A DNA stretch of 62,656 bases, the filler included. It is 4 parts of 4 records of this genome, joined end to end, with 100 filler letters (N's around TTAATTAATTAA, not from the genome) between each part and the next. Parts side by side here need not be neighbours in the genome. Positions count along the whole stretch, not along the records: positions 21,707 to 45,877 come from SRR22947727_2830; 3 more parts are not named here. One strand, 5' to 3'. The position numbers and the translations under genes are program-made. The notes beneath the pieces were generated by a model. The model was not told the origin of the DNA. It searched no databases and saw nothing but the letters and a program-made list of their open reading frames with translations. Below, piece after piece: positions 21,607-54,280 of this stretch; position 1 is the stretch's first letter; each line of letters opens with the position of its first letter.

Positions 21607-21706
21607 NNNNNNNNNNNNNNNNNNNNNNNNNNNNNNNNNNNNNNNNNNNNTTAATTAATTAANNNNNNNNNNNNNNNNNNNNNNNNNNNNNNNNNNNNNN
21701 NNNNNN
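21607..21706. other. Artificial contig spacer
   Basis: N-run + TTAATTAATTAA (stops in all frames) + N-run. Confidence 0.98.
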
Positions 21707-21736
21707 AGGTAGAACCGCCGCAAAAATCATCGGTGA
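21707..21736 (+). repeat. 30-bp inverted copy of the opposite contig end (45848-45877)
   Basis: AGGTAGAACCGCCGCAAAAATCATCGGTGA is the exact reverse complement of 45848-45877. Confidence 0.95.
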
Positions 21737-21930
21737 CCAGTGGCTGCATTAGAGCGACGGCGGTGGATTCGCTGTCGCGAGGATACCGCACCATAGTGCC
21801 AGAGGAGTGTGTCGCGGATAAGCACGAGAGTTACCACTTTGCTAACTTAACGGATCTGGCGATTAAGTATGCTGACGTGATGGGAGTGGATGAGGTGCTA
21901 GATTGGCTGTCGCAGCAGGGCCGCTCGTGA
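21733..21930 (+). CDS. Isochorismatase-family amidohydrolase (maleamate/N-carbamoylsarcosine amidase-like), C-terminal part
   Basis: TSGCIRATAVD catalytic Cys motif, VPEECVAD, ANLTDLAIKYADV. Confidence 0.85.
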   Translation: MTSGCIRATAVDSLSRGYRTIVPEECVADKHESYHFANLTDLAIKYADVMGVDEVLDWLSQQGRS

Positions 21931-22853
21931 GTGACGTAGCGCAATTTTCGGAGCTCTCTCTTTACGACTATAGTCCCTACGATGAACGGCCTAAACTCGT
22001 TTGGCCAAACGGTGCGCGGTTAGCGTTTTGGGTGGCGCCTAATATCGAATTCTACGAGTTCGACCCGCCGACGAATCCTCACCGTCAGCCATGGCCTCAC
22101 CCTTATCCGCCTGTGCCAGGTTACAGTATTCGCGATTACGGCAATCGCGTTGGCCACCAGCGGCAGATGGCGTTACTCGACAAATATGGTGTGCGCGGGT
22201 CGATTAGCCTGTCAGCCGCTTTATGCGAGCATCATCCTGAAATTATCGCTTTGTGCGCGGAGCGAAACTGGGAGTTTTTTAGTCATGGGATCTACAACAC
22301 GCGCTATACCTATGGCCTGACAGAGGACCAAGAGCGCGAGATGATTGAAGACGCCATGAACACGATTGAGCGCGCAGTCGGTCAGCGTCCAGCGGGTTAT
22401 TTGGCGCCAGCCTTGTCCCATTCAAATCACACAATTGATCTATTTGCCGAGGCGGGTGGCTTATACACCTGTGATCTATTCCATGACGATCAACCGACAT
22501 GGGTCAATACGCGATCGGATAAACCATTTGTATCCATTCCCTATTCTTTAGAACTCAATGACACCATTGCCTACGTAGTACAAAAGCGGGAGCCGCGCCG
22601 TTACGGTGAGAGCATTCGTCTGGCATTTGATCAGTTGTATGCTGAGGGCGCTGATAGTGGCACGGTGATGTGTATTCCCACCCACAATTATCAGGTGAGC
22701 TGTCCGCACCGTTTGCGCGCCTTTGAAGAAGCACTCGAATACATCACCGGCCATAGTGATGTCTGGGTCACCACTGGTAGAGAGATCGCGGAGTACGTTA
22801 TCGCTCAAGGTCGACAACAATTGGAGGGCAGGCCGGTGGAGCCATCAGCATGA
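21927..22853 (+). CDS. CE4/polysaccharide deacetylase family, PuuE-like hydrolase 1
   Basis: WPNGARLAFWVAPNIE, RDYGNRVG, WEFFSHG, DDQP, IPYSLELND; GTGA coupling. Confidence 0.87.
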   Translation: MSDVAQFSELSLYDYSPYDERPKLVWPNGARLAFWVAPNIEFYEFDPPTNPHRQPWPHPYPPVPGYSIRDYGNRVGHQRQMALLDKYGVRGSISLSAALCEHHPEIIALCAERNWEFFSHGIYNTRYTYGLTEDQEREMIEDAMNTIERAVGQRPAGYLAPALSHSNHTIDLFAEAGGLYTCDLFHDDQPTWVNTRSDKPFVSIPYSLELNDTIAYVVQKREPRRYGESIRLAFDQLYAEGADSGTVMCIPTHNYQVSCPHRLRAFEEALEYITGHSDVWVTTGREIAEYVIAQGRQQLEGRPVEPSA

Positions 22854-23776
22854 GCGACGAGTTACTGTCTTATCCACAGCGTCACTATGGCATGGATCAT
22901 GATCGCTATCGGTGGTCTATGCTACAGGACCGGGACCCCATCGTATGGCCCGACAATAAGCCGTTGGCACTGTGGATTAACTTATCCGTACAGCACTTTC
23001 CGCTGTCGGGAGAAAAGCCCGTGGTCGCGCCACCAGGGGCGCTGACCATGCCCTACCCCGACTTACGACATTACACCCTTCGCGATTATGGTAATCGAGT
23101 CGGTATTTTTCGATTATTGACATTAATGCAGCAGTATCAGGCGACACCCTCTGTGGCGATTTCAGGGGCTTTAGCACAACGTTACCCGAGGCTGATGGAG
23201 CGGTTGGCAGAGACCGGTTACGAATGGTTGGGTCATGGCTGGAACATGCTGTGTATGCATGCCGGTGAAATCGATGTAGCGACAGAGTCCGAATGGATTG
23301 CGCGAACGCGTGAGGCACTTGAGGAATTTACCGATCAGCCCGTGACCGGTTGGTTGAGCCCCGGGCGCAGTCAAACCGCAAACACGCCTGAGCTCCTAAT
23401 GCGCAACGGCTTCAGCTATCAATGTGACTGGGTCAACGATGAGCTTCCTTACCCGTTTAAAACGGCGGAAGGTGAGATGACGTGCCTGCCGTCGTGTCTG
23501 GAGCTCGATGATGTTTTTGTTTTGACGCAAAATCTGCACAGCGAGGATAGCTTTGTACAGCAGGTGACTGATGCAGCAGATTTACTGATCGAGGAAGGGC
23601 AGAAGCAAGGCGGGCGACTGCTGGCATTGAATCTGCACCCCTGGCTAGTGGGTCAACCTCACCGTGTGTCCGCGGTAGAGAAGATTCTCGACGCGCTGTT
23701 GGTGGCAAGGGGTGACGCCATTTGGCACGCGCCACCCGCCACCATTGTTGGCGCTGCAATCGACCAGATTGGTTAG
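22850..23776 (+). CDS. CE4/polysaccharide deacetylase family, PuuE-like hydrolase 2
   Basis: WPDNKPLALW, RDYGNRVGIFR, GWLSPG, CDWVNDELP, LHPWLVGQPHR; ATGA coupling. Confidence 0.87.
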   Translation: MSDELLSYPQRHYGMDHDRYRWSMLQDRDPIVWPDNKPLALWINLSVQHFPLSGEKPVVAPPGALTMPYPDLRHYTLRDYGNRVGIFRLLTLMQQYQATPSVAISGALAQRYPRLMERLAETGYEWLGHGWNMLCMHAGEIDVATESEWIARTREALEEFTDQPVTGWLSPGRSQTANTPELLMRNGFSYQCDWVNDELPYPFKTAEGEMTCLPSCLELDDVFVLTQNLHSEDSFVQQVTDAADLLIEEGQKQGGRLLALNLHPWLVGQPHRVSAVEKILDALLVARGDAIWHAPPATIVGAAIDQIG

Positions 23777-23789
23777 CCAGGTGTCCGCC

Positions 23790-24470
23790 TTAGATGGCTT
23801 TGGTCGCGCCAAAGAAGGCAACCGACGCGATCGTCACCCAGTAACAGTAGGCCAGTCGCTTGCCTACGACTAAGCTCTTCTCCAGTTGATCCTCTGCGGC
23901 CTGATTGGGACCGTCAGCCAGCACTCTAAACAGCGTTGTCCACTCGCGCATAATAAAGCGCAGTTTGAGACCGATCATGAGCGTGACGCTGTAGAGCAGA
24001 ATCTTGATGGAGAACCAGTATTGCATTGGCCCCACGTTGAAGGGACCGTAGCCCATCAGTGAGCTGATGGACGCAATGACCATGATGGGAATCAAGACAA
24101 AACGGACGCGCTCATCCCACAGCGTCAGTTGAATACCGCGATCGGTTTCGCGATAAAAATAGGCCGAAACACACAGTGTCAGCCAGCCAATCGCCAAGAG
24201 CCATACCGCCACAAGAAAGCCGCCACCAAAGGGCTGAACCCCCCATAGATGACCCATATGAAGTCCGAGAGGCAGCAGGCTAATAATGCCAATGCGCGCG
24301 AGAATGTCGATGTTATAGGCTGTCTGCATGTGCCGACGGCGTTCCTCCATAGACAGTTTGCGATTGATCACGTGGGTTGAAGTATTGAATACGCCCCATT
24401 CGCCACCGAGCCAGTACACCATGGCAAGGATGTGTAGCCAGCGTAGTACCGCTAATTCAGTTACTCCCAT
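23790..24470 (-). CDS. Multi-pass membrane protein of unknown function
   Basis: About six hydrophobic segments; LRWLHILAMVYWLGG N-terminus; GGAG RBS-like sequence upstream. Confidence 0.75.
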   Translation of the reverse strand: MGVTELAVLRWLHILAMVYWLGGEWGVFNTSTHVINRKLSMEERRRHMQTAYNIDILARIGIISLLPLGLHMGHLWGVQPFGGGFLVAVWLLAIGWLTLCVSAYFYRETDRGIQLTLWDERVRFVLIPIMVIASISSLMGYGPFNVGPMQYWFSIKILLYSVTLMIGLKLRFIMREWTTLFRVLADGPNQAAEDQLEKSLVVGKRLAYCYWVTIASVAFFGATKAI

Positions 24471-24490
24471 TACCCCGTCTCCCGTGCTTA

Positions 24491-24510
24491 AAGATATAAC
24501 ATTATAACTT
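24491..24510 (-). promoter_or_regulatory. Putative GntR operator, copy 1
   Basis: Minus strand AAGTTATAATGTTATATCTT; matches copies near 24604 and 33885. Confidence 0.6.
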
Positions 24511-24603
24511 AATCAGTCTCGGAGTGGTTTGGCCTATTAAACGATGGCAACCGCGCCGAAACGGTGTGGTGTGATGCGGATTGAATAGGCATTACACCTA
24601 ATT

Positions 24604-24615
24604 TGTTATATCATT
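24604..24615 (+). promoter_or_regulatory. Putative GntR operator, copy 2
   Basis: TGTTATATCATT about 40 nt upstream of the gntR start. Confidence 0.55.
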
Positions 24616-24656
24616 ATGCCTAATTAAGTTATCTTGGCGCAATGAGAGTCTAGGGA

Positions 24657-25427
24657 ATGGAAGAAGTATTTAGCCCGCACGTTGTCGGGCAGCTATCAAA
24701 GGAGTCGCCTACGCCGCTGTACCACCAGCTCTTCTCGTTACTGAAGACGCGCATTTTGGACGGTACGCTTGGCTATGGTACGCGACTCCCCCCTGAGGAG
24801 CGGTTGGCAGATATTTTCAATGTGTCGCGGATTACCGCTAAGCGTGCGATGGACGATTTATCCAAGGATGCGCTTGTTGAGCGCCGCCGGGGCCGCGGTA
24901 CCCATGTCATTTATCGATACAGCCCGCGACCCGTTCATGCGCCTTTGACCGGTATGTTGCAAGAAATTGAAAGCATGGCGCGCAACTCAGTCGCGCAGAT
25001 TCTTGACTTCGGGATCCGTATTCCCCCGCAAAAGATTCGCGAAGATCTGAGTCTTGAAGAGGGTGAAACGGCTTTGCACTTACTTCGAGTCCGTGAGCGG
25101 GATGGCATGAAATTTGGCCACTACACCAGTTGGACGGCGGGTGTAAAAATGCCTGCTGATCCCGCCATTTTTGAAAATACGCCGCGTTTGAGTTACTTCC
25201 GTCAGCAAGGTCTAGAGGTGAGCCACGTCACGCAAATGCTGTCTGCCGTTGCAGCTGATGCCTCAGTAGCTTCTGCGCTGGATGTGGTTGAAGGGAGTCC
25301 CTTGTTGAGCTTGACCCGTCGGTCTTATCAAAAGACCGGTGCTGAAGCGGAACACATCATGGATTTTTTGGAGGTGCTCTACAATCCTGAGCACTTCCAA
25401 TATTCGATGGATCTCACGCTTGACTGA
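24657..25427 (+). CDS. GntR-family regulator, HutC/UTRA subfamily
   Basis: PLYHQL..LPPEERLADIFNVSRITAKRAM..RRRGRGT wHTH plus UTRA-type C-terminus. Confidence 0.92.
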   Translation: MEEVFSPHVVGQLSKESPTPLYHQLFSLLKTRILDGTLGYGTRLPPEERLADIFNVSRITAKRAMDDLSKDALVERRRGRGTHVIYRYSPRPVHAPLTGMLQEIESMARNSVAQILDFGIRIPPQKIREDLSLEEGETALHLLRVRERDGMKFGHYTSWTAGVKMPADPAIFENTPRLSYFRQQGLEVSHVTQMLSAVAADASVASALDVVEGSPLLSLTRRSYQKTGAEAEHIMDFLEVLYNPEHFQYSMDLTLD

Positions 25428-25431
25428 GGTG

Positions 25432-26481
25432 TTAGATCACCCCTCTTTTCTTTAATCGCTCAATCACCGCGGTTTGTTGATTCATAAAATGCGATCGTTC
25501 TGGTTTGACAATATCGCCTGATGCAGCAATTAAATTATCCTCTGGATAAAAGTCACGCTGCTGGTAAGTGGACTGAAACAGTGACAACCGTTGTCGTGCT
25601 AGCAAATTCGTCATAGCGGGTTTGGCCCTTGCTTCACGAAGCCGCGCTACGTCAATCATGGCATGCGCCACCATTGACTCTCCAGTATAGGCTTCTGTGA
25701 GCACCTGCCCCTTAAAATCCACCACTTGTGAATGCCCTTGGGTGGAGTTTTGCGGGACGGGGGAATGATGAATGGCAGAAGTATTACTGGAAATAACGTA
25801 ACACATGTTTTCGTAGGCCCGCGCACATTTGGCGATATTTTTAGGCGTCGGCCTCGGGCTACCCACCTCGCTGGAGGAGTGTAGGATCACTTCTGCGCCC
25901 CGTGTTGCCAATGCCCGCGTGACTTCGGGGTAGAGTATTTCTTCTGATGCCACACAGGCCAGCCGACCCAAGGGCGTTTCAACAACGGGGAAGAGCGCGT
26001 CGGCGCCATAAACGTCGATGTACTGCGAGAGAACATCGTGGGGAGTGGGTGCAAACATCGATATGAGACGGCGATAGCGAAGAATGACCTCACCCGCGTC
26101 GTCAATGATAAAACTGGTTTGGAAGTAAAGGTCAGGAAAGTGAGGGTCAAGTTCATACGCGTTGCCCGACAGATAGACCCCACGCTTTTTGGCAATCTCG
26201 CCCATGCGTTGGTATTCAGCGCCATCTATTTCGATACAAGCCTTAGTGCGCCAATCAGCGATACTCTCACCCATCGGAAAGCTGGTCAGGAAGTACTCGG
26301 GAAGCACCACTAGCTTCAGCGTATCGCCACTGAAGGTGCCAATAAACGCTTTGCTGCCCGCGATCAGTTCGTCTACGTGGTCCAACGTTGTTGACATGGC
26401 ATTGTCGACGGACGCCCGATCGGGGAGTGCGTTAATCGCCGTACAATCCATCTGTAATGCCAGGGCAGAATAGGGTGTCAC
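25432..26481 (-). CDS. Nitrilase-superfamily carbon-nitrogen hydrolase with atypical catalytic residues
   Basis: LVVLPEYF, LRYRRL, VETPLGRLACVASEEILYPE, ARAYEN, GHSQVVDFKG. Confidence 0.85.
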   Translation of the reverse strand: MTPYSALALQMDCTAINALPDRASVDNAMSTTLDHVDELIAGSKAFIGTFSGDTLKLVVLPEYFLTSFPMGESIADWRTKACIEIDGAEYQRMGEIAKKRGVYLSGNAYELDPHFPDLYFQTSFIIDDAGEVILRYRRLISMFAPTPHDVLSQYIDVYGADALFPVVETPLGRLACVASEEILYPEVTRALATRGAEVILHSSSEVGSPRPTPKNIAKCARAYENMCYVISSNTSAIHHSPVPQNSTQGHSQVVDFKGQVLTEAYTGESMVAHAMIDVARLREARAKPAMTNLLARQRLSLFQSTYQQRDFYPEDNLIAASGDIVKPERSHFMNQQTAVIERLKKRGVI

Positions 26482-26487
26482 GCTACA

Positions 26488-26793
26488 TTACTCCAAAGGT
26501 GTTTGTTGCAATCCCTCGACCAACATGACGCGAAATTCGCCCGTGCCTTCTCGGAGTGGTTTGGCGGCAGCATAGGCATCGCTATGCCAAAACGCGCTAG
26601 CCTGCTCGGCAGAGGGCCAGCGATGCATGACCAGACGCGTCGCGCCCCAGTCCCCTTCAAGGGCCTCCTGTTGTCCACCCAGGACTAAATACTCGCCGCC
26701 CTGTTCAGCCACAATGCCGGGTACTAAACGTGCGTAGGCAGCAAATTTTTCGGGGTCATGGATTACGGCTTCAACAATGATGTAGGCGGTCAT
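26488..26793 (-). CDS. DUF1330 family protein
   Basis: AYIIV..DPEKFAAY..GGEYLVLGG..LEG..FWHSDAYAAAKPLREG. Confidence 0.87.
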   Translation of the reverse strand: MTAYIIVEAVIHDPEKFAAYARLVPGIVAEQGGEYLVLGGQQEALEGDWGATRLVMHRWPSAEQASAFWHSDAYAAAKPLREGTGEFRVMLVEGLQQTPLE

Positions 26794-26820
26794 CGCGTCA
26801 CACCTCGATCGTTATGATGG

Positions 26821-26868
26821 TGCGACACAATATAGCACGCCCTCTAGGGCGTGCTATATTGTGTCGCA
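26821..26868. repeat. Perfect 23-bp inverted repeat with 2-nt loop
   Basis: TGCGACACAATATAGCACGCCCT-CT-AGGGCGTGCTATATTGTGTCGCA. Confidence 0.95.
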
Positions 26869-26912
26869 GCTGCGCTCATTCGACGAGGTGCTCGAGCAGG
26901 GTGATGCGATTG

Positions 26913-28478
26913 TCAGGACAAACCCAGCACGCCAGGGTTCATGATGCCCTCTGGATCCAGCGAAGACTTGATCCCTAGGATTAAATCGCGTGCAGCGGGC
27001 TTCAGCGCGTCTTGATAATGGTAGGCCTTGCCCAGCTGTAAGTGACTGGCACCTTCACGGGACAGCACATCGATCACTTCACTTTTTATTTTTTGAACCG
27101 CTTCCCACGCATTGGGGACCGCATCAAACTGATGGAGTCGTGCCAAATGATCTGATTCAAGGGAATGCTTATGCAGTGCATTCAGTGCATCGGGCCAAAA
27201 AAAGACCGGCTCTAAAACCGTAATTTGTTCGCTCACTACCGCAATAAGGTAACCCGTCTCGATAGTAAACTGAGCTAATAGTGCTTGGTGGTCAGCATAG
27301 ACCGACTCAATGGCGGCCAATACTGCTTCGCCGCGAGAGTGCGGGACCAGTCCGTGCACGGGCAACCATCGCTCACCCTCCGCTCCGACCATATTATTGA
27401 CTGGCCCAAAAGGATTGGCGGCAAGGATGCGCGGAATGCTATCGGGAAGCTCAGTTCCCCCTTCTGCAGAACAAATGGCGCGAATACGTTCGGCCTGAAA
27501 GGCGGTTTCTTCGTCGGTGCGGCCTTCACTGATAGTAAACATAGCCCACTCAACGTCATCCATAAAACGCCGACCCGATAATGCAATCTTCGCGCTTTGT
27601 TTGAGCTTGCCAACCAGACTGGACTCCGCTTTGACGACGCCAGAGAGCTGTTGCGCGTCGGCGGTGAGACTCGCTCGCTTCATACGCTGCTTTTGTAGGT
27701 AGGGGTCGAAGCCAAAGCACTCAGTGGTCAAAGACTCCCGCGAAATCTGTGCCATCGCGCGTAACATGGGTCCGGATGTCCCAAAAGCAAAGCTGGTGTA
27801 GCTTTTTGAACCTGCCAGCGGAACGAGGGGGAGTGTGGCTCTCACCTTGATACCCAGTGCGCCACAATCACTGGCGAATAGCCCCGTAAGATCAGGACCG
27901 AAATGCCGGGTAAAGGGCGCGGCGTGACGTTGGCTTGCTGAGCCAGTTTCGATTAATTCCCCCTTCCCGGTGACAACGCTGAGGGACAGCACATTGTCAG
28001 CGGCTGTGCCGTGTTGCCCGCTTCCCCAAAAAATACTGTTCTGGGACAGTCCACCGCCTACCGTCGCGAAACGCCCTGAAAGCGTTCCCCAGTAGGGCGT
28101 GCGGACACCCAAGGGGGCCAGTTGCTCATAAAGCGCTTGCCAGCTGCAGCCAGTTTCGACAGTGACGTAACGATCCTCCAAATTGATCTCGATAATGGCG
28201 TTCAGGTTGGTGATGTCCACCAATAGACTGTCTGGAGCGGTGGCGAGATAACCACTGGTATAGCTCATTCCACCACCTCGCGTCACGATGGGCGTGCCTC
28301 GTTCTCGGCACGCACGCACCAGCGCTTGCACTTCTTCAATGCTGCGCGGCGTGACAACGGCGCAGACCGGTGGGCCTAACGAAAAGACATCTTGCGAGTA
28401 GAGGGCGATTTGTTCTGGATCCGTCTGAATGATTTCCGCGGGCAGTAATTGTTCGATACTCGATACCACTGCGTTCAT
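26913..28478 (-). CDS. FAD-binding oxidoreductase (VAO/GlcD family)
   Basis: TRGGGMSYTSG, ATVGGG, GPDLTGLF..CGALGI, LDPEGIMNPG; GGAG RBS before ATG 28478. Confidence 0.87.
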   Translation of the reverse strand: MNAVVSSIEQLLPAEIIQTDPEQIALYSQDVFSLGPPVCAVVTPRSIEEVQALVRACRERGTPIVTRGGGMSYTSGYLATAPDSLLVDITNLNAIIEINLEDRYVTVETGCSWQALYEQLAPLGVRTPYWGTLSGRFATVGGGLSQNSIFWGSGQHGTAADNVLSLSVVTGKGELIETGSASQRHAAPFTRHFGPDLTGLFASDCGALGIKVRATLPLVPLAGSKSYTSFAFGTSGPMLRAMAQISRESLTTECFGFDPYLQKQRMKRASLTADAQQLSGVVKAESSLVGKLKQSAKIALSGRRFMDDVEWAMFTISEGRTDEETAFQAERIRAICSAEGGTELPDSIPRILAANPFGPVNNMVGAEGERWLPVHGLVPHSRGEAVLAAIESVYADHQALLAQFTIETGYLIAVVSEQITVLEPVFFWPDALNALHKHSLESDHLARLHQFDAVPNAWEAVQKIKSEVIDVLSREGASHLQLGKAYHYQDALKPAARDLILGIKSSLDPEGIMNPGVLGLS

Positions 28479-28691
28479 GTTGTGTCTCCGAATCAAATCC
28501 TTTTTGCTCAACCAAAAGAGTAGCAGACGTGGTAGTCATTAGCGCGCCTTACGGCATTGCCGCTTAATAGATAGCATATTCTCGGACTTAGGGCACTAGG
28601 GAGCGGCGGTGCCGGTACGGCGTTAAAGAGATATCAACTCCCTATCAGGATCACGGTATGATGCGGCTAGGCTGAGCTCGAAGGTATCCGT

Positions 28692-29630: not shown

Positions 29631-29640
29631 GGTCGCTACG

Positions 29641-30540: not shown

Positions 30541-30614
30541 GTCTATGTTGTCTGAATCCGCGTGCTGGTCGATAAAAATCAGCACGCCTTTTTACGGAGA
30601 GTGATCGGTTTATC

Positions 30615-32021
30615 GTGGCAATGACGCTGTTTGATAAGCTCTGGCAGGAGCATGAGGTGGAGACGCTCTCCGAGCGTCAGTCCCTCCTGTACGTCGATCG
30701 CATTTTTCTTCATGAACGAACGGGCAGCGTAGCACTGAATAGTTTGCTTGAGCATGGCCGTCCTGTGCGACGCCGGCAGCATGCTTTTTGCACGATGGAT
30801 CATATTGTGGATACGATCCCTGGGCGGAGTGACGACACACTGATGCCCAGCGGGCGCGATTTTATTGTTGCCACCCGAAGCGCTGCGCGTGAGACAGGTA
30901 TTCAATTATTCGATATTCAGGATCCCGATCAGGGCATCGTGCACGTGATCTCCCCAGAATTAGGTATTGCATTACCCGGCTTGTCATTAATTTGCCCTGA
31001 TAGCCATACCTGCACCTTGGGTGGCTTGGGTGTGTTGGCGTGGGGGGTGGGATCAACCGAGGCAGAGCATGCCCTGGCAACCAGTACGCTTAGGGTAACT
31101 CGACCGCAAACGATGCGAGTGCAGTTTATCGGCAGTATGGCTGAGCATGTCACCGCCAAAGACCTTATTCTTTATACGATTCGGTCGTTGTCCGCGTCGG
31201 GGGGCGCAGGATACGCCATCGAATTTGCGGGTCCGGCTATTGTGGCGCTGCCAGTTGAGTCACGGCTCACCCTTTGCAATATGGCGACAGAACTCTCTGC
31301 GTTTACCGGGCTGATTGCCCCCGATGAGCAGGTCATCGATTATTGTCAGGGGCGTCCGTTCGCCCCTCGAGGCGCCGCATGGGAGGCGGCTATCCGTCAT
31401 TGGCAGACCTTGCAAAGTGATGCAGATGCCCAATTCGATAGCGAGCACCGCATTGATATTGGTTCCTTGAAACCACAGCTAACATGGGGAACCAGTCCGC
31501 AACACTGTATTGACTGGGATGAGGAAATTCCCGGTGCGGGAGAGGCGCCAGACGAGGCAACGGCAGCATCTTGGCAGCAGGCGCAGGCGTACATGGGCGT
31601 GACGGCGGGGCACCGCTTATCGGACTATCCGCTCGACGCTGCTTTTATTGGCTCGTGCACGAATAGCCGCTTATCAGACTTACGCGATGCGGCGAGCTAT
31701 CTGACGCAGACGGGGCACCGTGTTGCAAAAGGCGTAAAGGCCCTGTGCGTGCCCGGCAGTGGTCGCGTCAAGCGAGCCGCGGAAGCGGAAGGCATTGACG
31801 CCGTTTTTCGTCAAGCTGGGTTTGAATGGAGAGAGCCCGGTTGCTCGATGTGTTTCTTTGCCGGGGGGGAGAGCCTTGGGGAGGGTGTGCGGGTCGCTTC
31901 CACCACCAATCGCAATTTTCAGGGACGTCAGGGTCTGGGTGTCAGAACGCATCTTGGCAGTCCGCTGAGCGTTGTAGCGAGCGCTTGTGCCGGGCACTTG
32001 TTAGCCGATATGACGCCATGA
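30615..32021 (+). CDS. Aconitase-family hydratase large subunit (LeuC paralogue, probably catabolic)
   Basis: QGIVHV, CPDSHTCT, FIGSCTNSR, PGCSMC, STTNRNFQGRQG; divergent residues and no leuA/leuB neighbours. Confidence 0.88.
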   Translation: MAMTLFDKLWQEHEVETLSERQSLLYVDRIFLHERTGSVALNSLLEHGRPVRRRQHAFCTMDHIVDTIPGRSDDTLMPSGRDFIVATRSAARETGIQLFDIQDPDQGIVHVISPELGIALPGLSLICPDSHTCTLGGLGVLAWGVGSTEAEHALATSTLRVTRPQTMRVQFIGSMAEHVTAKDLILYTIRSLSASGGAGYAIEFAGPAIVALPVESRLTLCNMATELSAFTGLIAPDEQVIDYCQGRPFAPRGAAWEAAIRHWQTLQSDADAQFDSEHRIDIGSLKPQLTWGTSPQHCIDWDEEIPGAGEAPDEATAASWQQAQAYMGVTAGHRLSDYPLDAAFIGSCTNSRLSDLRDAASYLTQTGHRVAKGVKALCVPGSGRVKRAAEAEGIDAVFRQAGFEWREPGCSMCFFAGGESLGEGVRVASTTNRNFQGRQGLGVRTHLGSPLSVVASACAGHLLADMTP

Positions 32022-32653
32022 CACCTTTCACGTTGCATCAGGGTATTGCCGCACCGCTTCTACGGGATAACATTGATACCGACACGATTATTCCCTCGCG
32101 GGAGATGCGGACGGTTTCGCGCTCTGGCCTTGCCGACGGATTGTTTGCACCGTGGCGTTACACCGATGTGGATGCGCGGGTGGCGCACCCCGATTTTGTG
32201 CTCAATCAAGCGTGCTATGCGGGTGCTTCCATTATGTTGGCAGGTCTCAATTTTGGCTGTGGCTCCTCTCGAGAACATGCCGTATGGGCCATGATGGAGT
32301 GGGGCGTTAAGGTCGTCATCGCGCCCTCTTTCGCGACGATCTTCCGTAATAATGCGTTGCGCAATGGGCTGCTGACAATCGAGCTAACGCGCGATCGAAT
32401 TGAATGGCTGGCTCATTGGGTTAGCGCTGATCCTCAGGTAAACCCGTTAACGGTGGATCTCCAAGCCTGCACGATTTTGAGTGGGGCGGGCCGCGAGAAA
32501 GAGGTCTTTCAGATCGATCCGATAGCGCGCGCGATGCTCATCGAGGGTCTCGACGAGATTGGACTGACTGAACAGTCACTGAATCACATTGAGGATTTTG
32601 AACATCGTGACCAGCTGCGTCGCCCCTGGGCTTACCTAGTGGACCCGCACTAA
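32018..32653 (+). CDS. Aconitase-family hydratase small subunit (LeuD paralogue)
   Basis: [44 protein letters not shown] coupling. Confidence 0.88.
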   Translation: MTPFTLHQGIAAPLLRDNIDTDTIIPSREMRTVSRSGLADGLFAPWRYTDVDARVAHPDFVLNQACYAGASIMLAGLNFGCGSSREHAVWAMMEWGVKVVIAPSFATIFRNNALRNGLLTIELTRDRIEWLAHWVSADPQVNPLTVDLQACTILSGAGREKEVFQIDPIARAMLIEGLDEIGLTEQSLNHIEDFEHRDQLRRPWAYLVDPH

Positions 32654-33864
32654 GCGTTTAGTATGCCTCTCTCGATTAAGGCGGCAATCTGATCGACATC
32701 AAGCCCCAGCTCTTGCAGCACCTCATGGTTATGTTCGCCGGTCGCGGGGATGTCGCGGTGCAGGGGAGATTTGGTCTGGCCAAACTCAATGGGCAAACGC
32801 GGTAATTGGGTTGCTTCCCCTGCGCGGAGACCCTCGGTGAGATGAACGGGCACTAAGCCATCCGACGCGCTCAAATGGGGATCGTCAAATAAATCGCCGG
32901 GGCGATTGATCGGTGAGAAGGGCAGTCCAGCGCGATCTAGCCGTTCGCTGAGGTCAGCCAAATTCATTGGCGCAAATAAAGTGCGGATATGGGCCAATAG
33001 CGTTTCTCTCGCTGCCACGCGGCCCGCATTGGTGGCTAGGTCTTTGTCGCTGGCCCAATCCGTTAACGCGAACTCAGCACAGAACCGTTGCCACAGGGTA
33101 TCGCTGACGATGCCGACAAAAATCCGCTCTCCCGACGTTAAATCGAAAATGTCATAAATAGCCCATGCCGATTGACGTACTGACATCGGTGGCGGGGCCT
33201 CCCCACTGACTGCCTGCTGCGCCATATGCTGGCCAACTAAAAAAGCGGTGGTTTCAAACAGCGCGCTGGTCACATGTACCCCTTTACCAGAGGCTTGTCG
33301 CTGGTGGAGTGCAGAGAGAATCGCGATGACACCGAACATCCCGCCGGTAATATCAATGACAGAAGAGCCTGCCCGCATCGGCTGATCAGGAAGACCCGTC
33401 ATGTAGGCCAGTCCGCCCATCATTTGGGTCACCTCATCAAGGGCAACGCGGTGCTCATAGGGACCAGACAGAAAGCCTTTGAGAGAACAGTAGATCAAGG
33501 CAGGATGGCTGGGTTCGAGGGTGTCGTAGTCCAATCCCAGATTGGCCATGGTGCCCGGCCGAAAGTTTTCCAGCACAATGTCCGCCGAATGAATAAGGTC
33601 AAGTGCCACTTTGCGACCTTCCGGATTTTTGAGATCGAGGGCGATAGAGCGTTTGTTGCGGTTATACATGGGAAAATAACCGGCTCCTGAGCCTTGCAGA
33701 CGACGGGTGTTGTCGCCGTTGAGCGGTTCGACTTTAATGACATCTGCCCCTAAGTCGCCCAGAATCACACCCGCGGTGGGTCCCATGACCATGTGGGTGA
33801 ATTCGATGACTTTGATACCTTTCAGTGGAGCGCACTGTGCATGCGTCTCCTCGCCCCCCGTCAT
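32650..33864 (-). CDS. Class III CoA-transferase (CaiB/BaiF family)
   Basis: PLKGIKVIEFT, DLGADVIKVE, NRNKRSIALDLK, ENFRPG, GEHNHEVL. Confidence 0.92.
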   Translation of the reverse strand: MTGGEETHAQCAPLKGIKVIEFTHMVMGPTAGVILGDLGADVIKVEPLNGDNTRRLQGSGAGYFPMYNRNKRSIALDLKNPEGRKVALDLIHSADIVLENFRPGTMANLGLDYDTLEPSHPALIYCSLKGFLSGPYEHRVALDEVTQMMGGLAYMTGLPDQPMRAGSSVIDITGGMFGVIAILSALHQRQASGKGVHVTSALFETTAFLVGQHMAQQAVSGEAPPPMSVRQSAWAIYDIFDLTSGERIFVGIVSDTLWQRFCAEFALTDWASDKDLATNAGRVAARETLLAHIRTLFAPMNLADLSERLDRAGLPFSPINRPGDLFDDPHLSASDGLVPVHLTEGLRAGEATQLPRLPIEFGQTKSPLHRDIPATGEHNHEVLQELGLDVDQIAALIERGILNA

Positions 33865-33884
33865 TACTGCATCCCCAGATGATT

Positions 33885-33904
33885 TGTTATGATGTTATAT
33901 CATT
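33885..33904 (+). promoter_or_regulatory. Putative GntR operator, copy 3
   Basis: TGTTATGATGTTATATCATT in the divergent gap between CoA-transferase and reductase. Confidence 0.6.
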
Positions 33905-33940
33905 AAGCTGTTTTAGCTGCCAAGGTGCTTAGGTGACCAG

Positions 33941-34948
33941 ATGACAGAAAATCGAGACAATCAAGGAATCATTCTAGCGCAACGTCCTGATGGGTTGCCT
34001 AATCCGGATGACTTTGCCTTCGAAGTACGACAACTCGGACCGCGAGCTGCCGGAATGATTCGCTGTCAAACCCTGTTTTTATCGCTCGATCCTTATATTC
34101 GCTCGGTCATTGCCGGCAATCACCTGGGGCATGGCATCAATACGGGCGATATTGTGCCGGGCGAGGTGGTGGCCAGAATTATCGAGAGCGATGACCCGAC
34201 ATGGCCAGTGGGAATGCTGGTGCGTTGCCATAGCGGTTGGCAACAGTTCTGCGATCAGCCAGCGGAGGGATTGTCACAGGTACCCCAAGCGCTGAGCCGC
34301 CCGTCACTGACCTTGTCGATATTGGGTATGCCTGGATTGACCGCGTGGGCGGGCATGGTGTCCATTGCTAATGTCCGCGAGGGCGATGTGGTGGTCATTC
34401 CTGCTGCGGTAGGTGGTGTGGGCGCCATGGCAGCGCAATTAGCTCGGCGAGCGGGGGCGACAACGATTGCTGTCACAAGCGGAGCTGAGAAGCGTCGGAT
34501 CGCCCTGGAGACATTGGGGTATGACCATTGCATTGACCGTGTCGATCAAGACCTGGCTGAGGCATTGGCGGACGTCGCGCCACAAGGTGTCTCTGTTTAT
34601 TTTGATTTGGTGGGTGACCCGACGCTCACGACGGTTGCACAGCAACTCGCAATCGGCGGAAGAGTCGTACTCTGTGGATTAATTAAAGACTATAACGGTG
34701 ATCATAAAACGACGGGGCCGCATCCCGGACTCTGGATTACCAAGCGAGCCACTGTCAGTGGATTGGTGGTGTATGACTATGAACCGCAACGCGCTGCCTT
34801 CGAGCAGGAGTTTATCCCCCTTGCTGAGGCGGGTGACTTGGTCGCGAATGAAGAAATGCACGAAGGGTTGGCGTCTGCACCTGACGCATTTTGTCGCCTT
34901 ATGCGAGGAGGCAATACCGGTAAGGTGGTGGTTCATGTCGATAGCTGA
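33941..34948 (+). CDS. NADP-dependent MDR ene-reductase (CurA/prostaglandin reductase-like)
   Basis: LAQRPDGLP, LSLDPY, LGMPGLTAWAG, YFDLVG, GNTGKVVV. Confidence 0.88.
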   Translation: MTENRDNQGIILAQRPDGLPNPDDFAFEVRQLGPRAAGMIRCQTLFLSLDPYIRSVIAGNHLGHGINTGDIVPGEVVARIIESDDPTWPVGMLVRCHSGWQQFCDQPAEGLSQVPQALSRPSLTLSILGMPGLTAWAGMVSIANVREGDVVVIPAAVGGVGAMAAQLARRAGATTIAVTSGAEKRRIALETLGYDHCIDRVDQDLAEALADVAPQGVSVYFDLVGDPTLTTVAQQLAIGGRVVLCGLIKDYNGDHKTTGPHPGLWITKRATVSGLVVYDYEPQRAAFEQEFIPLAEAGDLVANEEMHEGLASAPDAFCRLMRGGNTGKVVVHVDS

Positions 34949-34960
34949 GGAAAATAATCA

Positions 34961-35905
34961 GTGATGAATCCCATCACAATCAGCGAGGTGGGCCCGCGAG
35001 ATGGGCTGCAAAGTGTTGAGACGGTATTGCCGACAGCGGACAAAATGACCTGGATAGAGGCCGAGTACCGCGCGGGTGTTCGAGAAATTGAAGTCGGCTC
35101 CTTTGTATCGCCAAAGATCTTGCCGCAAATGGCGGATACCGCAGTTATCGTGCGGGGTGCCCGGCGATTTGAAGACCTTGTCGTGGCGGTACTGGTACCT
35201 AATGTTCGGGGTTGTGAGGCCGCAATCGAGGCGGGGGCACATAAGATTTCTATCCCGCTGTCACTCAGTGAGACGCATAGCCAGAAAAACGTGCGTCGTG
35301 ATCACAAGCAAATGTTAGAGGAGATTAGTGCCTGCCAAAAACTGGTAGATCAACTGCCGCTCGGAGAGCGTCCTTATTTCGAGGTGGGATTATCGACCGC
35401 GTTTGGCTGCACCATTGAAGGCGTAGTCGAAGAGGCTTTCGTGATCGAGATGGCTGCGCGAGTGCTGGATCTGGGTGTCGCCGAGGTGGGTCTATCGGAT
35501 ACCACCGGAATGGGTAACCCCGCCCATCTGGAAAGATTGGTAACGGGCATTTGGCAGCGGTGTGGTGAGGCTCGACTCACGGGGGTACATCTTCACAACA
35601 CCCGAGGTCAGGGGCTGGCGAATGCATTGCGAGCGATTGAGTTGGGCATTACCACGCTCGACAGTTCCTTGGGCGGTCTGGGCGGATGTCCCTTTGCACC
35701 GGGAGCGAGCGGCAATATTGTGACGGAAGATCTTGTCTTTATGTTGGAATCGATGGGTTACGCGACCGGGATTGATCTGGAAGCGTTATTGGCCGTCCGC
35801 CACCAAGTCGCCACATTACTGCCTGAAGAAGAGTGGTATGGCTTCACGGCTTCTGCTGGACTACCGAAGCATTTTGATACCGCGACTCTGGGGGAGGCAC
35901 CTTAA
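34961..35905 (+). CDS. Hydroxymethylglutaryl-CoA lyase family protein
   Basis: EVGPRDGLQ, STAFGC, SDTTGMG, HLHNTRGQG, GGLGGCPFAPGASGNIVTEDL. Confidence 0.9.
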   Translation: MMNPITISEVGPRDGLQSVETVLPTADKMTWIEAEYRAGVREIEVGSFVSPKILPQMADTAVIVRGARRFEDLVVAVLVPNVRGCEAAIEAGAHKISIPLSLSETHSQKNVRRDHKQMLEEISACQKLVDQLPLGERPYFEVGLSTAFGCTIEGVVEEAFVIEMAARVLDLGVAEVGLSDTTGMGNPAHLERLVTGIWQRCGEARLTGVHLHNTRGQGLANALRAIELGITTLDSSLGGLGGCPFAPGASGNIVTEDLVFMLESMGYATGIDLEALLAVRHQVATLLPEEEWYGFTASAGLPKHFDTATLGEAP

Positions 35906-37353
35906 TGACTGCGGCACCGTCTCTCCTTGTTCGTAATCCGAGGACAGGTGAGTGTGATTACGAGATGCCAGTCGTTTCAGCCGCTGCGATCACGCCAATA
36001 GTCGAGGCGCTGCGTGTGGCACAAACTGACTGGTTGGCGATGGGCGCGACCACTCGATCGCAGTGCCTCAACCGTTTTGCAGAGGCGGTGATGGCGGAGG
36101 TTGAACCACTGGCAGCCGCGCTTGCGATCGATACAGGTCGTTCTACCTTTGCGCAATTTGAAGCAATAAAATCAGTGGAGCTCATCCGCCTGTGGGCTGA
36201 GCGAGCGCCGCCGATTATTGAGCAACTAGCGGGCGCTGGACAATCCGGGCAAGTCCCTGCCGTGCACTATCAACACCGATTGATCCCCTATCAAGTCGTC
36301 GCGGTGATCAGCCCGTGGAATGTGCCTTTGCTATTGGCGATGATCGATAGTCTTGCGGCCTTGTCTGCAGGCTGCTCTGTGCTACTGAAACCCTCAGAGG
36401 TGACGCCTCGATTTATTGAGCCGCTGCAGCGCGCACTCGATACGGTGCCCGAGCTGGCAAGTGTTTTACACATCATCACAGGGGGTCCCGACACCGGCAA
36501 AGCGATGATCGATCAGGTTGACGCAGTCTGCTTCACGGGGAGCGTGAAGACGGGCCGCGATGTCAGCCAGCGAGCGGCGGCCAATTTTATTCCGGCCTTT
36601 TTAGAATTAGGGGGTAAAGATCCTGCGTTGATCTTACCAGATGCCGATTTGCCGCTTGCTGTCCGCGCAGTCGTGCGCAGCGCCATTGGTATGACGGGCC
36701 AGGCCTGCCAGTCATTAGAGCGCATCTATTGCCATGAGGATGTGGCGGAGGCGTTAATCGAGGAGGTGGTCAGTCAGTGTCAGGCGTTATCGTTAACGTG
36801 CACTGAGGATGGTTCGGGTGACATTGCACCACTGATCTTTGCGAGACAAGTTGAGACGATACAGGCGCAAATAGACGACGCGCTTAAGAAGGGGGCGCGT
36901 TGCTTGTTGGGCGGAGAGCCGGTGCATGCTGGGGGTACCTGGTACCCGCCGACTGTGCTGATCAACGTTGATCACGATATGTTGGTCATGCAGGAGGAGA
37001 CCTTTGGGCCTGTTATTCCGATCGCAACGTTTACGGATGTCGAAGAGGCGGTTGCACTGGCGAATGACTCGACTTTTGGGCTGTCGGCGGCGGTCTTCTC
37101 CGCCGATGTCGCGCGGGCACTGGGCGTCGCTGAACGCTTGCAAGTGGGCGCGGTCAGTATCAACGACGCGTCACTAACCGGCATTGTGAACGATGTTGAA
37201 AAAAATAGTTTCCGTTACTCGGGAATGGGCGGTTCCCGAATGGGGGCGGCCGGACTGACTCGTTTTCTTCGTAAGCGTGCCCTGTTGATACAGACCACAG
37301 AGCCCGCGATGATTCAGCTTTTTTCTGATCCAGCACAGGAGCACTCAGTATGA
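35905..37353 (+). CDS. Aldehyde dehydrogenase family protein
   Basis: ISPWNVP, KPSE, FTGS, LELGGKDP, GQAC, EETFGP. Confidence 0.92.
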   Translation: MTAAPSLLVRNPRTGECDYEMPVVSAAAITPIVEALRVAQTDWLAMGATTRSQCLNRFAEAVMAEVEPLAAALAIDTGRSTFAQFEAIKSVELIRLWAERAPPIIEQLAGAGQSGQVPAVHYQHRLIPYQVVAVISPWNVPLLLAMIDSLAALSAGCSVLLKPSEVTPRFIEPLQRALDTVPELASVLHIITGGPDTGKAMIDQVDAVCFTGSVKTGRDVSQRAAANFIPAFLELGGKDPALILPDADLPLAVRAVVRSAIGMTGQACQSLERIYCHEDVAEALIEEVVSQCQALSLTCTEDGSGDIAPLIFARQVETIQAQIDDALKKGARCLLGGEPVHAGGTWYPPTVLINVDHDMLVMQEETFGPVIPIATFTDVEEAVALANDSTFGLSAAVFSADVARALGVAERLQVGAVSINDASLTGIVNDVEKNSFRYSGMGGSRMGAAGLTRFLRKRALLIQTTEPAMIQLFSDPAQEHSV

Positions 37354-37637
37354 CGATGGTTTGCGTTGATTTAAAAACGGGAGAGGCTGGATATCAGCCG
37401 GTTCTCGACTTTCTGACCACAATATTGCCGGACACGCGGGCCTTTGACGGATGTCAGGATTTGCGCGTCTACCTAGAGGATGAGGGCGCGAAAATACTGT
37501 TCATCGAGTATTGGGAGAGTGCCGAACACTATCAGCGTTACCTCAGCTGGCGCACCGAAACGGGCGTCCTTGACGACCTGGTTGCGATGCTGGCTGAGCC
37601 ACCCATTATTCGTATTGCGGAAGATTCGGGTATTTGA
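37350..37637 (+). CDS. Antibiotic biosynthesis monooxygenase (ABM) family protein
   Basis: LPDTRAFDGC, EYWESAEHYQRYLSWR. Confidence 0.8.
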   Translation: MTMVCVDLKTGEAGYQPVLDFLTTILPDTRAFDGCQDLRVYLEDEGAKILFIEYWESAEHYQRYLSWRTETGVLDDLVAMLAEPPIIRIAEDSGI

Positions 37638-39716: not shown

Positions 39717-39770
39717 AGGTAAATGGTCTCCGAGTGACGTTGAGCCGTTAGCGGAACCGCAACCACGTCG

Positions 39771-45977: not shown

Positions 45978-47371
<1,394 letters not shown>

Positions 47372-54279: not shown

Positions 54280-54280
54280 C

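Follow-up and report, generated by a model that had tools for sequence, protein, structure and literature searches.

Gene content of the cluster

The stretch of DNA analyzed here (the window; 62,656 bases) consisted of four contigs, and the second of these (21707-45877) carried a gene cluster at 21733-37637 that began at the very edge of the contig. The conserved core of the cluster was a triad of genes for an isochorismatase-family cysteine amidase (ISO) and two PuuE-like hydrolases (PD1 and PD2); further genes encoded a GntR-type regulator, a LeuCD-type hydratase, a class III coenzyme A (CoA)-transferase, and an acyl-CoA lyase. A first-pass annotation of this DNA had listed these and a series of accessory gene types as parts of a candidate catabolic pathway for a cyclic imide or N-heterocycle. 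Pfam and NCBIfam searches recovered the listed gene types, with the qualifications that the isochorismatase gene was present only as a C-terminal fragment and that the two VOC-type proteins, each of about 300 amino acids, had no Pfam match.

The host was assigned to Luminiphilus (Halieaceae, marine Gammaproteobacteria), a name taken from related contigs. One of these, a contig of an uncultured Luminiphilus metagenome-assembled genome, showed 100% identity over the query protein. The start of the cluster contig fell inside the isochorismatase gene, and other assemblies carried the rest of the gene upstream; the first 28 nucleotides (nt) of the contig (21707-21734) were at odds with those assemblies. 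Upstream of the contig edge, near-identical and related contigs carried three more genes, which encoded a 242-amino-acid (aa) beta-barrel protein, a paralogue of the VOC2-like protein of the cluster, and a second membrane protein.

A pair of PuuE-like paralogues behind an isochorismatase-family amidase

The translated ISO fragment in the window (21735-21930, +), which was cut by the contig edge, comprised about 65 C-terminal residues and was 98% identical to the product of a full-length 245-aa gene in a related locus (L004). The full-length orthologue matched the Pfam Isochorismatase family (98 bits). The Cys-containing segment TSGC(I/V)RAT was kept in alignments of ISO to 26st and 4l07 and was present in the window fragment. 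When the L004 protein was used in a PDB sequence search, the best match was N-carbamoylsarcosine amidase (2.2e-28), followed by 4l07 (2.5e-27), which we take to be a maleamate amidase, and 3uao (7.5e-18), presumably NicF; no NCBIfam equivalog was reached. The sequence by itself cannot pick between N-carbamoylsarcosine amidase and maleamate amidase as the substrate class of ISO.

The two genes behind ISO, PD1 (21903-22853, +) and its paralogue PD2 (22850-23776, +), overlapped by 4 nt. Both products matched Polysacc_deac_1 in Pfam at only 32-33 bits. On TIGR03212, the PuuE allantoinase equivalog (cut-off, 424.6), PD1 and PD2 scored 121.9 and 103.2 bits, whereas two control true PuuE genes scored 523 and 469 bits. 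The best PDB match for each was nevertheless PuuE 3cl6 (4e-30 for PD1 and 4.5e-24 for PD2), PD1 also matched 3s6o (3.4e-24), and an alignment with the two control genes gave about 27% identity to true PuuE. According to one report, a Glu-His-Trp triad in PuuE replaces the Asp-His-His metal site of CE4 deacetylases and is accompanied by a catalytic His259, and BpIH, a cyclic-imide hydrolase, is 61% identical to PuuE and 91% identical to 3S6O (PMC11424739). The corresponding residues of PD1 were an invariant Glu49, His128, Asn132, and His261, with Asn at the position of the PuuE Trp. Those of PD2 were Gln48, His129, Met133, and His263, with Gln at the Glu position and Met at the Trp position. 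BpIH shows that cyclic imides can be hydrolyzed by members of this group. PD1 shares the CE4-derived fold family of PuuE and BpIH (EC 3.5.2.16) and keeps the Glu and both His residues, whereas PuuE and BpIH are encoded by single genes and the pair described here was always found as two adjacent paralogues lacking the Trp, with Gln for Glu in PD2. These comparisons place PD1 and PD2 in the same superfamily as BpIH and PuuE and in a different subfamily, outside both the allantoinases and the metal-dependent deacetylases.

Mean column identity over 22 orthologues from several classes was 78% for PD1 and 65% for PD2. PD2 looks catalytically reduced; PD1 is probably the catalytic subunit and PD2 probably its partner. 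A modeled PD1-PD2 complex scored 0.78, a value attained by 51 of 78 solved complexes and by 2 of 108 mismatched pairs; the best control scored 0.00. Three modeling runs shared at least 94% of the contacts, and the predicted local distance difference test (pLDDT) score of the partner was at least 92. The complex score may reflect likeness to multi-chain PDB entries of the PuuE family. Because the PD2 active site looks reduced, the genes overlap, and the pair was never found apart, a PD1-PD2 heteromer would be the simplest reading, and the complex model supports it.

The same matches bear on an alternative in which PD1 and PD2 would open a hydantoin- or dihydropyrimidine-like ring, much as PuuE opens allantoin, and ISO would act as an N-carbamoyl amidase. 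This would leave CO2 and ammonia together with an amino or oxo acid for the remaining genes to degrade. Such a ureide route is favored by the top PDB match of ISO, N-carbamoylsarcosine amidohydrolase at 2.2e-28, and by the position of PuuE allantoinases as the nearest solved relatives of PD1 and PD2, whereas Pfam and NCBIfam detected no genes of the ureidoglycolate or allantoate type in the cluster. Further evidence on both sides came from related loci and is given with them.

Hydratase, CoA-transferase, and lyase genes

The large subunit of a predicted iron-sulfur (Fe-S) hydro-lyase was encoded by a leuC paralogue (30615-32021, +; Aconitase, 480 bits). It scored 641.5 on subfamily NF009116, above the cut-off of 531, and 504.8 on equivalog TIGR00170, below the cut-off of 560.25. 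The small-subunit gene, a leuD paralogue (32018-32653, +; Aconitase_C), started within the stop of leuC, and its product scored 199.7 on TIGR00171 (cut-off, 116.25). Neither leuA nor leuB was among the Pfam-annotated genes of the cluster. A leucine-biosynthesis-type set was found on the third contig of the window (45926-55784; G+C, 0.61) and comprised two LeuA-like synthases, a LeuB-type dehydrogenase, a class IV aminotransferase, and a 480-aa LeuC. If that contig comes from the same organism, this set is likely to be the housekeeping counterpart of the LeuCD paralogue in the cluster.

The class III (CaiB/BaiF) CoA-transferase (32650-33864, -) matched CoA_transf_3 with 369 bits over positions 1-366 of 366. 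It fell below the cut-off of each equivalog; the best was succinate--glutarate CoA-transferase (252 versus 750), and the mesaconate CoA-transferase model gave 199.7 versus 700. Its PDB matches included 4ed9 (1.4e-59) and the succinate--hydroxymethylglutarate CoA-transferase 9br7 (1.3e-46). The acyl-CoA lyase (34961-35905, +) matched HMGL-like with 153 bits, scored 276.4 on subfamily NF004283 (cut-off, 246), and matched 3-hydroxy-3-methylglutaryl-CoA (HMG-CoA) lyases in the PDB at 3e-65. Genes for methylcrotonyl-CoA carboxylase or related enzymes were not among the Pfam-annotated genes of the cluster.

An operator-like motif joins two divergent promoter regions

The regulator gene (24657-25427, +) encoded a GntR/HutC-type protein with Pfam matches to GntR (63 bits) and UTRA (67 bits); its score of 94 on the HutC equivalog was below the cut-off of 220. 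A repeat search revealed a 23-nt inverted pair that joined the divergent region between the gene for a membrane protein (23790-24470, -) and the GntR gene to the divergent region between the CoA-transferase gene and a reductase gene (33941-34948, +), and this pair was the source of the 16-nt pattern TGTTATATCWTTAWGC. The pattern had three exact matches in the whole window, and all three were in these two intergenic regions. Site 1 (24486-24501, -) lay in the membrane gene/GntR region within the inverted pair (I2). Site 2 (24604-24619, +) lay in the same region in the opposite orientation and was found at the same place in related loci. Site 3 (33893-33908, +) lay in the CoA-transferase/reductase region, and its position was kept in 15 Halieaceae loci. 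When up to three mismatches were allowed, there were 4 matches versus 0.66 expected, and none of 100 shuffles reached 4. The shared operator-like motif reported in the first-pass annotation was therefore confirmed, and its three TGTTATATC sites are candidate binding sites for the GntR protein.

A 9-nt core of the motif occurred 44 times in 35 related loci, at orthologous intergenic positions and never inside a recognized gene. One of these sites separated the CoA-transferase and lyase genes on a plasmid of Acidiphilium, an alphaproteobacterium, and others lay in the gap that divides the barrel gene from ISO in three distant metagenome loci. The consensus of the HutC subfamily is GTNTANAC. This sequence was considered as a candidate operator and rejected; it was not in the intergenic regions of the cluster, and its single occurrence on the contig, at 42343, was far beyond the cluster.

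Four genes were packed behind site 3 with overlaps or a 12-nt gap, namely, those for the reductase, the lyase, an aldehyde dehydrogenase (35905-37353, +), and a small ABM-like protein (37350-37637, +), whose start overlapped the aldehyde dehydrogenase stop. In view of this tight packing, the four genes probably form one operon under the control of the motif via site 3. The cluster is co-regulated and widely shared.

These data also speak to the possibility that the locus is a mosaic of unrelated small operons, with one set for amide hydrolysis, one of LeuCD, CoA-transferase, and lyase genes for acids resembling citraconate or itaconate, and a group of detoxifying oxidoreductases, all of which would just happen to be neighbors in the Halieaceae. 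Both strands carry genes of the cluster, which make up at least five transcription units; terminator-like hairpins are found at 26821-26868 and at about 30568-30598, and acyl-CoA dehydrogenase, DUF6285, and APH genes further downstream look separate, all of which would be expected of a mosaic. A single operator-like motif at two separate promoter regions, found also at related clusters in other classes, would not. The hairpin at 26821-26868 forms a perfect inverted repeat (23 nt; loop, 2 nt) between the genes for a DUF1330 protein and a flavin adenine dinucleotide (FAD)-linked oxidase (both on the minus strand), and it may act as a terminator or as a further site for protein binding. Contigs from RNA and DNA runs had four changed letters in this repeat, at 26856-26860.

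Conservation of the triad and exchange of its partners

A search with the first unannotated protein yielded 25 loci. The gene order and orientation of the window were kept in all eight Halieaceae loci that spanned ISO to the lyase gene; the genes that fell below a 50% coverage filter were those for LeuC and the reductase (L004), the membrane protein (L007), and GntR (L020). Among 401 sampled genomes of the phylum, only 2 contained PD1 at an E value of 1e-40 or less, and the nearest of the genomes covered (G001; 89% complete) gave no match to a PD1 query. Because this sample was too sparse, metagenome contigs were used for the statistics. Scanning an alignment of PD1 orthologues against them identified at least 569 stretches with a relative, and the best 80 were kept. 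Among these 80, ISO immediately preceded PD1 in 69 of the 70 loci that extended far enough to show it, and PD2 immediately followed PD1 in 65 of 65. The first-pass annotation had named a lack of co-conservation as an observation that would speak against its proposal; the conserved order in the Halieaceae and the fixed triad in the metagenome loci were the opposite of this.

The triad was also found, with all three genes together, on plasmids of Burkholderia plantarii, Salipiger abyssi, Comamonas endophytica, Acidiphilium multivorum, and Sphingomonas sp. JE1 and in one further genome (G092). In Pelomonas cellulosilytica, where PD1 was 75% identical, a single operon had the order VOC1-ISO-PD1-PD2-HMGL-CoA-transferase-LeuC-LeuD. 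The A. multivorum plasmid had the order HMGL-ISO-PD1-PD2-LeuC-LeuD-FAD oxidoreductase-porin-MFS transporter, with a divergent CoA-transferase gene. Plasmid pJE1 of Sphingomonas carried a set of LeuCD, CoA-transferase, and HMGL genes plus a second LeuCD with a lyase of the isocitrate lyase/phosphoenolpyruvate (ICL/PEP)-mutase family, as well as homologues of the FAD oxidase, the barrel protein, and a VOC protein. That hydrolase and hydratase/lyase genes stand in single tight operons in Pelomonas, Acidiphilium, and pJE1 further argues against a mosaic, which we consider very improbable.

Other lineages carried other enzymes next to the same triad. On plasmid p1 of B. plantarii (L026), the LeuCD was of the small archaeal type and the lyase was PrpB-like (277 bits; cut-off, 354). 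At 1-5300 of the same locus, genes for a CaiB/BaiF CoA-transferase, an acyl-CoA dehydrogenase, and the alpha and beta subunits of electron transfer flavoprotein adjoined the triad, LeuCD, and PrpB-like lyase genes, and they would suit a glutarate-type cleavage product. In G092, the partners were PrpD/MmgE, a class III transferase, and a CitE-like lyase (149.8 on the RipC model; cut-off, 375).

To count partners, we used 46 diverse triad loci, that is, the metagenome loci with PD1 below 81% identity and a length of at least 8 kb plus the named loci, and their open reading frames (ORFs) were clustered de novo. Hydratases were found in 24 of these loci, lyases in 23, both in 18, and either in 29. 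A MaoC/mesaconyl-CoA-hydratase family and a CitE family were each present in 8 loci and occurred together in 7, with acyl-CoA dehydrogenase families alongside. Enoyl-CoA hydratase (10 loci), acyl-CoA dehydrogenase (10 loci), and short-chain dehydrogenase/reductase (12 loci) families were also found, and further recurrent partners were a ChrR-type cupin (7 loci), a flavin amine oxidase (6 loci), and TonB receptors (5 loci). In nine loci, the triad was accompanied by a HapK/RedY-like 102-aa protein (Pfam HapK, 2.4e-11; L105, 7002-7310, -), a member of a family presumably known from gene clusters for prodiginine, a tripyrrole pigment.

The hydratases (LeuCD, PrpD, and MaoC) and the lyases (HMGL-like, PrpB-like, and CitE-like) around the triad appear to be interchangeable and functionally equivalent. 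Because three unrelated hydratase families and three unrelated lyase families stand beside a fixed triad, the product of the triad would be a substituted C4 dicarboxylate, either unsaturated or, where dehydrogenase sets are present, saturated. These swapped downstream sets are the strongest evidence for the logic of the pathway. They are also what the hydantoin or ureide route fails to account for, since it leaves the recurrent unsaturated-dicarboxylate hydratases and the three unrelated C-C lyase families unexplained. The Salipiger plasmid, on which the triad is followed by an amidase and by hydantoinase/oxoprolinase A and B genes, does fit that route. Overall, we regard the ureide route as quite unlikely.

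A proposed catabolic route for an imported nitrogen compound

Taken together, these results suggest that the cluster is a GntR-controlled catabolic regulon in which PD1/PD2 and ISO hydrolyze C-N bonds, after which an alkyl-substituted maleate or succinate is hydrated, activated with CoA, and cleaved. We give this reading a probability of about 55%; gene content, co-conservation, the shared motif, the active-site residues, and the folds were observed, and the individual steps, their order, the heteromer, and the substrate are what we infer from the genes. Specifically, a PD1/PD2 heteromer would hydrolyze an amide or imide bond within the ring of a small nitrogen compound taken up by the cell, and ISO would free ammonia from the resulting half-amide. 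The triad would yield a C4 dicarboxylate with an alkyl substituent, either maleate-like or succinate-like, which the LeuCD paralogue would hydrate. The class III CoA-transferase would then activate the hydroxy acid, and the HMGL-like lyase would split the CoA ester into a 2-oxo acid (probably pyruvate) and an acyl-CoA. Since the compact operon versions list no annotated oxygenase, a cyclic imide appears to be the most economical substrate.

The first-pass annotation had proposed a similar order, from ring opening through a half-amide and a maleate to an oxo acid. Comparative genomics backed the part that runs from C-N hydrolysis and a maleate-type acid through hydration and a CoA ester to cleavage. 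It did not establish the opening of a cyclic imide, given that the PuuE triad is incomplete, ISO is equally near to N-carbamoylsarcosine amidase, and VOC1 resembles a hydroquinone ring-cleaving dioxygenase as much as it does a glyoxalase.

Several observations weigh against the proposed regulon. The full Glu-His-Trp triad of PuuE was absent from both PD1 and PD2, and so was the CE4 Asp-His-His triad, the aligned residues being Glu/His/Asn in PD1 and Gln/His/Met in PD2; the chemistry of the pair could therefore differ from PuuE-type ring opening. ISO matched N-carbamoylsarcosine amidase as well as it matched 4l07 and better than it matched 3uao. On the regulatory side, the exact motif was not found between the FAD oxidase and VOC1 genes, and the promoter of the triad itself was off the contig in the window. 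The best 80 of the at least 569 metagenome loci were mutually related, so their counts are not independent samples. The Salipiger and Comamonas plasmids carried the triad with other partners, and 17 of the 46 diverse loci, some of them short or one-sided stretches, had neither a hydratase nor a lyase nearby, which is also what a mosaic would predict.

The resemblance of VOC1 to a dioxygenase raises a further alternative, namely, oxidative cleavage of a hydroxypyridine- or hydroquinone-like ring in a route analogous to the 2,5-dihydroxypyridine/maleamate pathway but with a substituted compound. In such a route, ring cleavage would fall to VOC1 as a PcpA-like dioxygenase. The N-acyl (alkyl)maleamate formed would be deformylated or deacylated by PD1/PD2, ISO would serve as the maleamate amidase, and the LeuCD, CoA-transferase, and lyase enzymes would dispose of the (alkyl)maleate. 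VOC1 (28692-29630, +) had no Pfam match and was assigned from a structure model (pLDDT, 89.9; predicted template modeling score, 0.91) that gave 335 PDB matches at an E value of 0.001 or less, led by two-domain VOC proteins. The Foldseek matches included maize glyoxalase I (2.5e-12), GLOD4, and 2,6-dichlorohydroquinone 1,2-dioxygenase (4huz; 2.2e-11), so the dioxygenase was matched about as well as glyoxalase I, and either an isomerase-like or a ring-cleaving role is possible for the modeled fold. In Pelomonas and in Novosphingobium, homologues of VOC1 adjoined the triad next to ISO, and aromatic-ring hydroxylases of the FAD_binding_3 type were encoded nearby; Novosphingobium also had a flavin amine oxidase. 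The VOC2/3-type family recurred in 16 of the 46 diverse loci and the cupin family in 7, and CE4-fold enzymes include N-deacylases, which again suits this route. On the other hand, the B. plantarii and Acidiphilium plasmid operons, which contain the triad, a hydratase, a lyase, and transporters, have no annotated oxygenase among the genes listed. Moreover, PD1 and PD2 are nearer to the ring-opening PuuE group than to any deacetylase, and Pfam detected no FAD_binding_3-type hydroxylase in the window. Overall, we consider oxidative ring cleavage unlikely.

If the proposed hydrolytic regulon is correct, one group of candidate substrates is the alkyl-maleimides and alkyl-succinimides, such as methylethylmaleimide, methylvinylmaleimide, and haematinic acid imide. 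Compounds of this kind arise from chlorophyll, bacteriochlorophyll, haem, and bilins, and they would reach the cell as monopyrrolic fragments of photo-oxidized tetrapyrroles, with the cluster as the marine form of a widespread and so far undescribed bacterial route for their mineralization. We infer this with the help of general tetrapyrrole chemistry, and as a tentative proposal, it is more doubtful than probable by a wide measure. Opening of the imide would fall to PD1/PD2 and the release of ammonia to ISO. The resulting dialkyl-maleate or -succinate, hydration of which gives only a tertiary alcohol, would be hydrated and then cleaved to pyruvate and an acyl-CoA or a glutarate-type acid. For fragments that are larger or carry side chains, the route would rely on the VOC, barrel, cupin, aldehyde dehydrogenase, CN-hydrolase, and reductase genes.

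Several features fit a pigment-derived substrate and are not proof of it. Every tail variant uses a lyase and not a dehydrogenase. The acyl-CoA dehydrogenase/MaoC/CitE set of some relatives suits saturated acids derived from succinimides. The glutarate-type genes by the Burkholderia version, the TonB receptors that flank several versions, and the HapK/RedY-like protein fit as well. Finally, the carriers include Luminiphilus and Acidiphilium, which we take to be bacteriochlorophyll-containing genera.

Relation to known systems

In the cyclic-imide metabolism of Blastobacter sp. A17p-4, an imidase is followed by a half-amidase. As described, that route resembles the first two proposed steps (imide to half-amide to dicarboxylate plus ammonia). 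Unlike it, the cluster is proposed to use a two-paralogue PuuE-like pair and an isochorismatase-family amidase, and it has a hydratase/CoA-transferase/lyase tail, which points to a substituted rather than a plain succinate or maleate.

NicF and Ami are the maleamate amidohydrolases of aerobic nicotinate, nicotine, and picolinate degradation. The shared element is an isochorismatase-family cysteine hydrolase just before a maleate-type acid. In contrast to the maleamate branch, the window had no NicX-type dioxygenase, NicD-type deformylase, or maleate isomerase, and the maleate-type product, which that branch isomerizes, is proposed to be hydrated and cleaved.

Hydration of alkylmaleates has precedents in DmdAB, the dimethylmaleate hydratase that acts with 2,3-dimethylmalate lyase in nicotinate fermentation by Eubacterium barkeri, and in the maleate hydratase HbzIJ. 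By description, these systems also use a LeuCD-type Fe-S hydro-lyase on an alkylmaleate and then cleave a C-C bond, as proposed here. Some relatives of the cluster pair a small LeuCD with an ICL/PEP-mutase-family lyase, which is exactly the DmdAB-type pairing. The window differs in having a bacterial-type LeuCD (NF009116) and, with the class III transferase and HMGL-like lyase, a CoA-dependent cleavage.

The last two steps can be compared to the (R)-citramalate CoA-transferase and (R)-citramalyl-CoA lyase of Chloroflexus and to the itaconate trio Ict-Ich-Ccl. These systems pair a class III CoA-transferase with a lyase, either HMGL-like or CitE-like, by which a CoA ester of the 2-methylmalyl type is cleaved to pyruvate and an acyl-CoA, and the MaoC/CitE version in some relatives of the cluster resembles them. 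The cluster differs in that no equivalog threshold was reached and in that the acids are proposed to come from C-N hydrolysis rather than from central metabolism.

The NCBIfam equivalogs, the PDB sequence search, and the literature matched no characterized pathway, in agreement with the claim of the first-pass annotation that the pathway was undescribed. The cluster is a set of known enzyme families in a combination without an earlier description. No bacterial alkylmaleimide pathway and no account of this gene combination were found in the literature covered, which did not extend to subscription journals, so an older or paywalled description is possible. A search for strain JE1 and its plasmid found nothing on pJE1. 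A review of Burkholderia cenocepacia expression data was considered as a match and rejected, as the purine and nicotinate clusters that it concerns are unrelated (PMC3417382).

If the proposed regulon is real, it would amount to a full catabolic route, regulator and operator included, for a class of small nitrogen compounds that has no described bacterial pathway. It would also give functions to the orphan families PD1/PD2, the VioE/LolA-like barrel, the six-helix membrane protein, and DUF1330, and it would be a case in which three unrelated hydratase and three unrelated lyase families were swapped into the same two steps. Should the substrate be pigment-derived maleimides, a gap in the recycling of chlorophyll and haem nitrogen and carbon in sunlit water would be closed. 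The culturable carriers P. cellulosilytica P8, Sphingomonas sp. JE1, and A. multivorum JZ-6 make the proposal directly testable.

Accessory genes

The remaining genes of the cluster, namely, the VOC, barrel, membrane protein, CN-hydrolase, DUF1330, FAD oxidase, MDR reductase, aldehyde dehydrogenase, and ABM genes, most likely serve in side-chain trimming or precursor feeding. The membrane protein is a polytopic protein of 226 aa. It had no Pfam or NCBIfam match, and its Atlas clusters were all "hypothetical"; it accompanied the triad in 8 of the 46 diverse loci, and a paralogue was encoded upstream in relatives. The 349-aa CN_hydrolase-family amidase (25432-26481, -; Pfam, 106 bits) was only distantly related to aliphatic amidase, formamidase, and Nit2, and its family was present in 13 diverse loci. 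The DUF1330 protein (26488-26793, -; Pfam, 98 bits) was found in seven. For the 532-aa FAD-linked oxidase/dehydrogenase (26913-28511, -; FAD_binding_4, 119 bits), the PDB matches, which were to D-lactate dehydrogenase and glycolate oxidase (5e-21), spanned only the FAD domain. On pJE1, a protein of 533 aa that shared both Pfam domains was encoded next to the cluster.

The first-pass annotation had listed two VOC proteins. The two-domain fold of VOC1 bore this out for the first of them. The other protein, VOC2 (29641-30540, +), had no Pfam match and was only weakly VOC-like, with a match to the VOC1 profile at an hhalign probability of 76%; it was 31% identical to the paralogue encoded upstream of ISO in L004. 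The reductase was an MDR-family NADPH ene-reductase-like protein (ADH_N_2 plus ADH_zinc_N) that scored 267 on the curcumin reductase model (cut-off, 440). The aldehyde dehydrogenase (Aldedh, 362 bits) reached no equivalog. Its family was present in 14 of the 46 diverse loci, and a match stood immediately before ISO in four loci (L060, L061, L070, and L086). The ABM-like protein scored 26.5 bits (cut-off, 23.1).

The 242-aa protein encoded upstream of the contig edge, by a divergent gene, was modeled as a beta-barrel (pLDDT, 90.4) and was found in 15 of the 46 diverse loci. Its fold was nearest to DUF1849 (template modeling score, about 0.55) and more weakly resembled VioE, LolA, and RseB, and it had many invariant His, Asp, and Arg residues. 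An assignment to DUF3108 was rejected as a weak lead (Pfam E value of 0.021 only); the Atlas clusters were otherwise "hypothetical."

Occurrence in public sequencing runs

At least half of the sampled words from the first 10 kb were carried by 17 public runs, which contained near-identical copies of this Luminiphilus version. The 19 holding rows came from 15 studies and were nearly all labeled marine, seawater, or estuary. Two metatranscriptome runs of one study covered all 30 bins, with long contigs that spanned genes on both strands, like those of the DNA run from the same study. A third RNA run, from another study, had short contigs (220-655 nt among those listed) in 21 of the 30 bins. DNA carry-over is possible, and the contigs from RNA libraries are at most a weak hint that the cluster is expressed.

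Composition and flanks of the window

The four contigs were joined by linkers of the form N44-TTAATTAATTAA-N44 at 21607-21706, 45878-45977, and 56843-56942, and the linkers were of the six-frame-stop type. The G+C contents of the contigs were about 0.53, 0.54, 0.61, and 0.33, respectively. Given these differences, the third and fourth contigs may come from other organisms (bin contamination) or be islands. The first contig encoded a 1,258-aa CobN/Mg-chelatase family protein and a B12-dependent methionine synthase (2449-6225, -, and 7278-10898, +). Near its end, a 150-aa ORF (21106-21558, -) was the end of pheT cut by the contig edge; it contained only the C-terminal domains of the phenylalanyl-tRNA synthetase beta chain (FDX-ACB, 96.6 bits, and the end of tRNA_synthFbeta).

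After the cluster, a trio of genes (38439-41218, -) encoded an acyl-CoA dehydrogenase, a DUF6285 protein, and an APH-family phosphotransferase. In Halieaceae loci, the gene for the acyl-CoA dehydrogenase kept its place immediately behind the cluster. The trio looks like a separate module and recalls the kinase-plus-dehydrogenase logic of 4-hydroxy-acid catabolism. Downstream of a Sel1/TPR-like ORF, a 22-nt unit was tandemly duplicated at 38315-38358, and one contig from a DNA run had a single copy of this unit, with 22 letters left out at 38319.

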